The position numbers were made by a program, and so were the translations under genes. A stretch of DNA of 64,000 nt, from the IMG/VR virus record IMGVR_UViG_3300028146_000009, positions 25,850 through 89,849 of that record. One strand, given 5' to 3'. This DNA comes from a virus (taxonomy: Duplodnaviria > Heunggongvirae > Uroviricota > Caudoviricetes). Under the pieces are notes generated by a model. That model was not told the DNA's origin. It saw nothing but the letters and a program-made list of their open reading frames with translations, and did no database searches. Numbering within the stretch: position 1 is the first letter of the stretch; every line of letters starts with the position of its first letter. Positions 59,972 through 60,577 of this stretch are shown here, one piece after another.

Positions 59972-60467
59972 GTTTTAAATACTCCTGAGTTAATTCATTG
60001 GTACTTGTTACTATATTATAAACTTTCCCGTTACTATATTTTTGGGCACAAAATAACTCTAAAGATGAATAGTCTTCAAAAATACCTACTATAAACTCTT
60101 TATATGACCCTGAGACGATGGAAACCTTAAAAAGATACTTACTGCTACCTTTAAACCTAAAGTCCTCTATAGGCTCAATAGAGAGTTTTAAATTACATAC
60201 CCGTTTAGGATTAATAAGTTGGTAGTCCATGTTACTATATTGATCCTTGTAAAACTGACACCTTGGTCTTAAGTTACTATAATTTGTTACTATCTCTAAA
60301 AGTTTAAACTCAAATTCTGGAATCATCATGTTACTATAAACTAAGTTTACCAGACTTCTGGAAATGTTACTACTAAAATTAATGTACACAGAATTATCCG
60401 CTTTATTTATTAAAGCAAATACTCCTGACTCGGCGGTAGATTTTAACACTTCGAATAGATCGGTCAT
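59964..60467 (-). CDS. hypothetical protein overlapping an array of GTTACTATA DNA repeats
   Basis: 167 aa. The repeats fall in different reading frames (read as YSN in one frame, IVT in another), so they are DNA-level elements. Confidence 0.35.
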   Translation of the reverse strand: MTDLFEVLKSTAESGVFALINKADNSVYINFSSNISRSLVNLVYSNMMIPEFEFKLLEIVTNYSNLRPRCQFYKDQYSNMDYQLINPKRVCNLKLSIEPIEDFRFKGSSKYLFKVSIVSGSYKEFIVGIFEDYSSLELFCAQKYSNGKVYNIVTSTNELTQEYLKRE

Positions 60468-60577
60468 ACCTATAGTTGTTAGACCAATTAAATTGTTACT
60501 AAATCCAGTAGCGCGATTATAATTATTTGATTAAAAATAAACCTTAATTAAATCAAGGGGGGATTTTTGTTACTAAA
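60007..60577 (+). repeat. nine co-oriented copies of GTTACTA(T/A)(A/C) (iteron-like array)
   Basis: Copies begin at 60007, 60030, 60231, 60273, 60286, 60330, 60366, 60494 and 60569. Inverted copies TATAGTAA(C/T) sit at 61093 and 61192. Confidence 0.6.

Follow-up and report, generated by a model that had tools for sequence, protein, structure and literature searches.

Oriented TAGTAAC heptamers form a conserved array, possibly operator-like, in and upstream of a GIY-YIG-fold gene of an uncultured phage family

The locus and its genomic setting

The stretch of phage DNA analysed here (the window, 64,000 nucleotides) carries structural, terminase and NAD-salvage genes, a portal gene with an intein-like insert and many small early open reading frames (ORFs). 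The large terminase subunit is 31% identical to its best match, from a Silvanigrella phage, with T5-like phages next at 24%, and, as judged by sequence comparison, the phage is distant from anything cultured. The 1050-aa portal ORF (50323-53475, minus strand) has Hint and homing-endonuclease (intein-type) Pfam matches in its middle, the portal protein of the related lineage L135 has 706 aa, and the window's portal gene probably contains an intein. At 43001-45400, GC content rises up to 0.40-0.51, with a GC skew of -0.36 to -0.41, over two ORFs of 325 and 327 aa (43428-44405 and 44409-45392).

The repeats that are the subject of this work lie at the head of a leftward operon, mostly inside its first gene, ORF 59964..60467 (hereafter, the host ORF; Table 1). 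The neighbours of the array encode an RF-1 domain protein, an HNH endonuclease, a phosphoesterase, small ORFs and the terminase. No helix-turn-helix (HTH) or repressor family was detected among the neighbours scanned, no replication genes within about 8 kb on either side of the array, and no phage RNA polymerase or sigma factor in the genes scanned. The RF-1-domain (GGQ) protein, with 122 aa (59603-59971, minus strand), is encoded by a gene that overlaps the stop codon of the host ORF; it resembles a small peptidyl-tRNA hydrolase or release factor and is missing at the corresponding position in L001, L002 and L003.

The host ORF is a real gene, with 13 homologues recovered by a single-sequence search and 26 by a profile search, at 40-100% identity, all of them metagenomic and without annotation. 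The AlphaFold model of the protein is confident (pLDDT 86.5) and consists of an N-terminal GIY-YIG alpha/beta fold and a small beta-beta-beta-alpha C-terminal domain. The canonical GIY-YIG catalytic residues (Tyr, Arg, Glu), which in I-TevI are Y6, R27 and E75 (the Tyr of GIY, an Arg and the metal-binding Glu), are not conserved in the host ORF alignment, an assignment of low confidence: the window and 3 relatives have Phe in place of the first GIY-YIG Tyr, the Arg has no fixed column, and the position of Glu75 aligns with the invariant Cys70 or Gln71 (a low-confidence alignment against the I-TevI sequence). The host protein has the GIY-YIG fold and is probably not an active nuclease. Neither blastn of 59500-61300 nor tblastn of the host ORF gave a match in 50,697 phage records, protein-pattern scans of IMG/VR for the host ORF, with a single sequence and with a profile, returned nothing, and a scan of GTDB genomes gave no match. 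An IMG/VR scan for three spaced TAGTAAC motifs yielded 119 loci, none of which encodes the host ORF and all of which are unrelated tandem repeats with regular periods of 10-45 bp.

To the right of the array, a rightward operon of small genes occupies the terminal ~9% of the genome. In L132, a (GGTCGN)n hexamer repeat (15340-15392, equivalent to about 68,450-68,510 in the window) ends an 89.9-kb ENA contig and is directly followed by Illumina adapter sequence (AGATCGGAAGAG); a contig end with adapter suggests a physical genome end at ~68.5 kb, ~8 kb right of the array. A pac site or genome terminus at the array itself is rejected, given that the contig end with adapter read-through is ~8 kb away. 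The heptamer array and the sigma-54-type array described below are located where the terminal 8 kb of a probable linear genome adjoin its interior.

Table 1. Coordinates of the repeat array, its host ORF, predicted promoter elements and single heptamers in the window
Feature	Position	Strand	Remarks
Host ORF, 167 aa	59964..60467	(-)	first gene of leftward operon
Intragenic heptamer	60007	(-) sense	+454 from ATG
Intragenic heptamer	60030	(-) sense	+431 from ATG
Intragenic heptamer	60231	(-) sense	+230 from ATG
Intragenic heptamer	60273	(-) sense	+188 from ATG
Intragenic heptamer	60286	(-) sense	+175 from ATG
Intragenic heptamer	60330	(-) sense	+131 from ATG
Intragenic heptamer	60366 (ends 60372)	(-) sense	+95 from ATG
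Proximal leader heptamer	60495..60501	(-)	-34 from ATG; between conserved TATAAT and TTAACAACTA block
Putative sigma-70-type operon promoter	60516..60544	(-)	conserved in 10-leader alignment; predicted assignment
Distal leader heptamer	60569..60575	(-)	-108 from ATG
Four sigma-54-type -24/-12 elements	60674..60758	both	TGGCAY-N5-TTGCW
Sigma-54-type element	60674-60689	(-)	
Sigma-54-type element	60701-60716	(-)	
Sigma-54-type element	60725-60740	(+)	
Sigma-54-type element	60743-60758	(-)	one mismatch
Heptamer	61194..61200	(+)	directly after TATATT (61187-61192); first rightward ORF downstream
Heptamer	63098..63104	(+)	5 nt before Shine-Dalgarno of ORF 63119-63448
Heptamer	28707..28713	(-)	short divergent promoter region; 31 nt before leftward ATG

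A dense array of co-oriented heptamers

The preliminary description of this DNA reported nine co-oriented copies of an 8-9-mer. The count of nine stands for the 7-mer core GTTACTA, with all copies on the plus strand within 570 bp (60007-60575), but not for the longer words: the exact GTTACTATA occurs 5 times within 60007-60577 (at 60007, 60030, 60231, 60273 and 60330; 7 times in the entire window vs 0.57 expected), and GTTACTAT 6 times. On the sense strand of the host ORF, the array unit reads TAGTAAC, and seven of the nine heptamers lie within the ORF, with the other two upstream of its ATG. The spacing is irregular, from 13 to 201 bp, without helical phasing.

The array is real and far above chance. 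GTTACTA is found 26 times in the 64-kb window vs 5.6 expected, a count that none of 100 shuffles reaches, and no second cluster exists in the ~78 kb covered of the ~90-kb genome; the flanks, 4.5 kb to the right and 9.6 kb to the left of the window, contain no further cluster. The motif is therefore not equally common elsewhere, the outcome that would have undermined the original proposal.

Selection on seven nucleotides

Within the host ORF, the heptamers occupy two codon frames, in agreement with the earlier observation of different frames: five copies are read as xxT-AGT-AAC (Tyr/Ser-Ser-Asn) and two as xTA-GTA-ACx (Ile-Val-Thr), the third frame being impossible because it would read TAG TAA. 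The codon choice is extreme. All Ser-Asn motif sites in this gene and its orthologues are spelled AGT-AAC, compared with 1 of 101 Ser-Asn pairs elsewhere (35 long window ORFs, 15,637 codons). The codon that precedes the core differs (TAT/TCT; ATA/CTA/GTA), and the T or TA is always retained. At identical residues outside the heptamers, synonymous identity is 0.46-0.72, vs 0.52-0.74 in a control gene from the same genomes, and hence there is no longer element hidden there; in the heptamer codons, it is 0.82. Selection thus acts on seven nucleotides, their strand and number, and on nothing else in the gene.

A peptide repeat is rejected by the two frames, the two non-coding copies, the 1/101 codon spelling and the varying preceding amino acid. 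The use of two frames, the extreme codon choice and the conservation with turnover across 11 lineages (see below) imply a signal at the DNA or RNA level, and the earlier claim of a DNA-level as opposed to a peptide repeat is strongly held on these grounds. Out-of-frame tandem stops (TAG TAA) acting as a translational trap were considered as well, since L135 keeps only TAGTAA, and are ruled out by the presence of stops in both alternative frames, the copies in untranslated leaders and the otherwise invariant C.

Conservation and turnover in related lineages

We compared the DNA of ten further lineages (L001, L002, L003, L005, L006, L008, L012, L134, L135 and L136). In each of the resulting 11 lineages, in which the host protein is 40-78% identical, 6-9 sense copies of TAGTAAC (or TAGTAAT) are present between -200 and the stop codon, and a heptamer in the reverse orientation is absent from this interval in all 11, so that every one of the ~80 array copies is sense. 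Synteny is constant wherever it is visible: the gene heads an operon after a divergent intergenic region of 550-750 bp, and the large terminase gene lies ~5 kb downstream of the GIY-YIG-fold gene in those lineages where it can be seen.

Some of the sites are universal, namely, those at about -25, at -100 to -190, at +95 and at +175. A proximal leader heptamer is found at -22 to -45 in all lineages with upstream sequence, and a distal one at -95 to -191 in all lineages. Other sites come and go. The +131 site is missing from L006, which has gained one at +62, and has moved to +140 in L003, L008 and L134; the +230 site appears at +233 or +245, with a shift of one codon where the protein has LYSSN, not QYSN; and the 3' sites differ in nearly all lineages. 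The array is thus kept at matching or compensating positions in 11 lineages, as the proposal of a conserved signal required, and this turnover points to selection on the number and density of sites rather than on their exact position.

The bases that flank the core vary freely, with TC, AA, TT or AG preceding it in the relatives, and TAGTAAC itself is invariant in 10 of the 11 lineages. The sole change affects position 7 in L135, where 4 of the 6 sites are TAGTAAT, a concerted relaxation of this position that would fit a loosened specificity of a co-evolving factor. The conserved unit, accordingly, is TAGTAAC, and neither GTTACTATA nor the TATAGT element that the preliminary description had read on the opposite strand.

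Single heptamers at the heads of transcription units

Among the other 17 copies in the window, 12 are inside genes (4 sense, 8 antisense) and were treated as background; the remainder are sense and located at the heads of transcription units (Table 1). The copy at 61194 belongs to one of the two inverted sequences noted originally, TATAGTAAC at 61192-61200, 18 nt before the ATG (61219) of a 29-aa ORF. The second inverted sequence is TATAGTAAT, lies at 61099-61107 and not at 61093, and is probably a chance occurrence because TAGTAAT is at background frequency in the window. The GCCGAnAAgTAT..TAGTAAC context of the 61194 copy recurs at 63098 in the window, at 5393 in L003 and at 364 in L136. Copies at the two other divergent regions, likewise noted at the outset, are indeed present, at 28707 and 56112, the former within the spacer of a promoter-like TTTACA-17-TATAAT sequence. 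The surroundings of the latter are conserved as the block GCTGGTTAGTAACCTATTGCCGTAAAAACGGC (56104-56145 in the window, about 9690-9740 in L001 and about 10425-10475 in L003), in which the heptamer sits inside a GGTTAGTAACC palindrome. A GC-rich hairpin comes after the block, which is part of the divergent region upstream of the DUF5675/endonuclease VII island.

In the relatives, single sense copies at the heads of units are found at L003 5393, L136 364 and L136 2194, and two more, at L001 5268 and L003 4671, directly follow a sigma-54-type element, TGGCAC/T-N5-ATGCA, such that the T/A of the heptamer forms positions -1/+1 of the predicted start. Altogether, eight single copies lie at about -20 to +16 from sigma-70-like or sigma-54-like starts, which are predictions from consensus. 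Some single copies precede a Shine-Dalgarno sequence by 0-20 nt, as in TAGTAACAGGAGG (L136) and TAGTAACaaaaaGGAG (63098 in the window). Antisense copies recur as well, at +800 to +1100 in L001, L002, L003 and L005, where ~0.02 would be expected by chance. What is established, then, is a strand-specific 7-nt signal that comprises one dense array and single copies at predicted early promoters or leaders.

Predicted promoters around the array

The leader of the leftward operon contains a TATAAT at 60521-60516 and a conserved GGTTTATT block around 60544-60537, which together resemble a sigma-70-type promoter; the start predicted from this combination places the proximal (-34) heptamer at about +9 to +15. 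The AT-rich block at 60522-60556, between the two leader heptamers, coincides with this conserved promoter. A scan with the sigma-70 promoter consensus returned fewer promoter-like sites than in shuffles, a terminator scan found none, and Rfam (E<=1, 59500-61600) gave no match. The TTAACAACTA block at 60474-60482 is conserved, in this and in the orthologous leaders, between the proximal heptamer and the ATG; the Shine-Dalgarno sequence in this leader is weak or absent, and the block may be a translational element.

Farther upstream, four elements of the sigma-54 type are packed into less than 100 bp on both strands (Table 1). These elements conform to TGGCAC-N5-TTGCW, with GG and GC 10 bp apart, and are in the sense orientation upstream of genes. 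The homologous intergenic regions of L001, L002, L003, L005, L006, L134, L135 and L136 contain 2-8 such elements each. The density of the array is 10.9 per kb, whereas 1 Mb of unrelated viral contigs has 0.014 per kb, and in L001 and L003 lone elements precede early genes by 40-50 nt. A Sigma54_activat domain was not found in any of the proteins scanned, the larger of which gave only generic AAA domains, and no relevant publication on sigma-54 and phage promoters came up in a literature search. The array of predicted promoters suggests that these phages depend on the host sigma-54; if confirmed, such a transcription strategy would be unusual among phages.

Between the sigma-54-type array and the distal heptamer, homopolymer G/C runs (60557-60562, 60624-60628 and 60637-60644) are conserved in the same places in relatives and extend up to 16 G in L005 and L135. 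The contigs of L005 and L012 break at such runs, probably an assembly artefact at homopolymers.

What the heptamers might do

The preliminary description offered replication-origin iterons and operator or promoter elements of an early regulator as explanations. Of these, we favour operators: the TAGTAAC array could be a set of operator-like binding sites for a sequence-specific factor controlling the early transcription units, a tentative proposal to which we assign somewhat less than an even chance. We infer all three of its components, namely, binding by a protein, double-stranded DNA as the target and an effect on transcription. Under this proposal, TAGTAAC, read in the direction of transcription, would act in cis as the site recognised by a nucleic-acid-binding factor with sequence specificity, probably a phage product. 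On single sites at or just downstream of the predicted starts, the factor would block initiation or promoter escape in the manner of a repressor on its operator. In the GIY-YIG-fold operon, two leader sites and five to seven coding sites would allow cooperative, high-occupancy binding, and the dense array might serve as a strong operator, a roadblock or a sink for the factor.

Several lines of evidence argue for operators. The single sense copies keep to the vicinity of predicted starts across two promoter types, and a range of about -20 to +16 around the start is typical of operators. The recurrent antisense copies favour recognition of duplex DNA over RNA, the concerted change to TAGTAAT in L135 fits a co-evolving factor, and selection at the nucleotide level, conservation, turnover and the confinement of the constraint to the heptamers are all compatible with protein-binding sites. 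Against this stand the lack of an HTH protein, repressor family or other candidate binder among the neighbours scanned, the small size and asymmetry of a 7-bp site repeated at irregular distances (13-201 bp) without helical phasing, and the derivation of the promoter and start positions from consensus alone. Simple repression has no obvious need for a seven-site array inside coding sequence, and the invariance of the heptamer over deep divergence is unusual for a phage-specific operator, although dual coding may freeze its sequence.

The complete sense bias of the ~80 array copies suits a signal in RNA or in the non-template strand at least equally well as operators. The motif could act as UAGUAAC in the leaders and in the 5'-most 500 nt of the operon mRNA, where an RNA-binding protein or nuclease would bind or cut it, resulting in translational repression, altered stability or autoregulation. 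The presence of 6-9 sense copies in each of 11 lineages, the single copies 0-20 nt upstream of Shine-Dalgarno sequences and the nuclease fold of the host protein are in line with such a role, and predicted mRNA folds leave the heptamers unpaired slightly more than 7-mers of matched composition (mean z 0.36 +/- 0.11). This accessibility effect is weak, however, the GIY-YIG active site looks degenerate, and Rfam yields no match. Moreover, antisense copies recur downstream in four lineages, and the copy at 28707 lies in the spacer of the best local promoter-like site and would not be transcribed from that site. On balance, we consider a signal in RNA rather unlikely.

The case for iterons of a replication origin, on which an initiator would assemble beside an AT-rich stretch, is built on the sole cluster (nine copies in 570 bp) in ~78 kb of the ~90-kb genome, its position at a divergent strand switch and the cumulative GC-skew minimum at ~61 kb, the AT-rich block between the leader copies, and the precedent of 6-8-bp iterons in P4 and the SaPIs. 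The skew minimum is uninformative on the origin because it coincides with the switch in transcription direction, and the AT-rich block is also the conserved promoter. The host gene encodes a GIY-YIG-fold protein rather than an initiator, the ~8 kb to each side contain no replication gene, the 7-bp core is irregularly spaced, and the heptamer is constant among relatives, whereas lambdoid iterons diverge. The promoter-proximal copies would require a second explanation, as secondary regulatory sites, a function that DnaA boxes also have. An origin at the array thus lacks support and is, in our estimate, clearly unlikely.

Returning to operators, the proposal can be extended to the sigma-54-type elements: the two arrays could form one control module, in which a phage factor bound to TAGTAAC would turn host sigma-54 and sigma-70 transcription of both early operons on or off. 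We hold this extension to be speculative and of low probability. In a different arrangement, the heptamers would be enhancers that bind an activator acting over 150-700 bp on the two-way sigma-54-type promoters. Promoters of the sigma-54 class need activator-binding sites at a distance, the enhancers of Vibrio cholerae FlrC are located downstream of the start site, and the dense TGGCAY-N5-TTGCW array is immediately upstream; but the enhancer sites known so far consist of dyad repeats and not of direct 7-bp repeats such as these, no Sigma54_activat protein was found among the proteins scanned, and two heptamers lie exactly on predicted sigma-54 starts, the position of a repressor, which leaves enhancers very unlikely.

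That the heptamers are themselves promoters, with a -10-like TATAGT or a single element that a sigma factor or RNA polymerase of the phage would use, and with the array as a series of internal promoters, is highly improbable: the window motif does read TATAGT(AAC), and several copies are 14-32 nt upstream of start codons, but the TATA part is not conserved (relatives have TCTAGT, AATAGT or GTAGT), there is no -35 element at a fixed distance, 7 of the 9 copies are inside the ORF, the heptamer abuts the ATG in L012 and L008 and cannot serve that gene, the consensus scan is below the shuffled expectation, and the genes scanned include no phage RNA polymerase or sigma factor. As for a Chi-like role, the copies between the probable end at ~68.5 kb and the array point in the direction opposite to the array, heptamer orientation also follows transcription, and, in contrast to known Chi sites, the motif is clustered and rich in AT.

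Significance and comparison with known systems

Clear cases of a protein-coding sequence visibly bent to carry arrays of nucleic-acid signals are uncommon, and the combination of a codon spelling used about 1% of the time with compensating gain and loss of sites makes this gene useful for studies of dual coding. In a phage family without cultured or database relatives, the array pinpoints the main control region, and its nine 7-bp sites, seven of which can be silently recoded, provide a precise handle for finding the early regulator or the origin. A full-text literature search for the motif returned primer sequences only.

Among known operators, those of the P1 C1 repressor are dispersed and asymmetric, and Mu O1-O3 as well as the P2/186 Cox/Apl sites form multi-site arrays; like the heptamers, all these are short, non-palindromic, oriented sites that are found at several promoters, with many in one region. 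The heptamer has 7 bp vs 17 bp for P1 C1 and 9-11 bp for the Mu, P2 and 186 sites. Unlike those operators, the main array here is in coding sequence and is irregularly spaced.

Short co-oriented repeats inside an ORF near an early divergent region are also a feature of the lambda ori in gene O and of SPP1 oriL in gene 38, and short iterons are present in P4 (TGTTCACC octamers) and in the SaPIs (hexamers to octamers). Such gene-embedded or short-iteron origins likewise comprise one cluster per genome, but differ in that here the host gene is not an initiator, the heptamer is constant among relatives and extra copies are found on promoters.

The host protein invites comparison with I-TevI, which is a homing endonuclease of the GIY-YIG family and, in addition, a repressor of its own promoter. 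However, it lacks a DNA-binding domain of the I-TevI type (zinc finger, NUMOD or HTH), its catalytic Tyr and Glu are not conserved, and its gene is syntenic in all relatives and not mobile.

For logic at the RNA level, the analogues are T4 RegA and RegB and CsrA; the GGAG sites of T4 RegB include some in its own mRNA. The CsrA GGA leaders and the RegB GGAG sites similarly consist of many short sense motifs in the leader and early coding region, and some heptamers abut Shine-Dalgarno sequences as those motifs do, but the motif is different and antisense copies exist. With regard to location, the proposed control module can be likened to the T5 region between the first-injected DNA and the remaining genome. 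A clustered short recognition site is, in sum, of a known kind; the motif, its deep conservation in coding sequence and the phage family are new.
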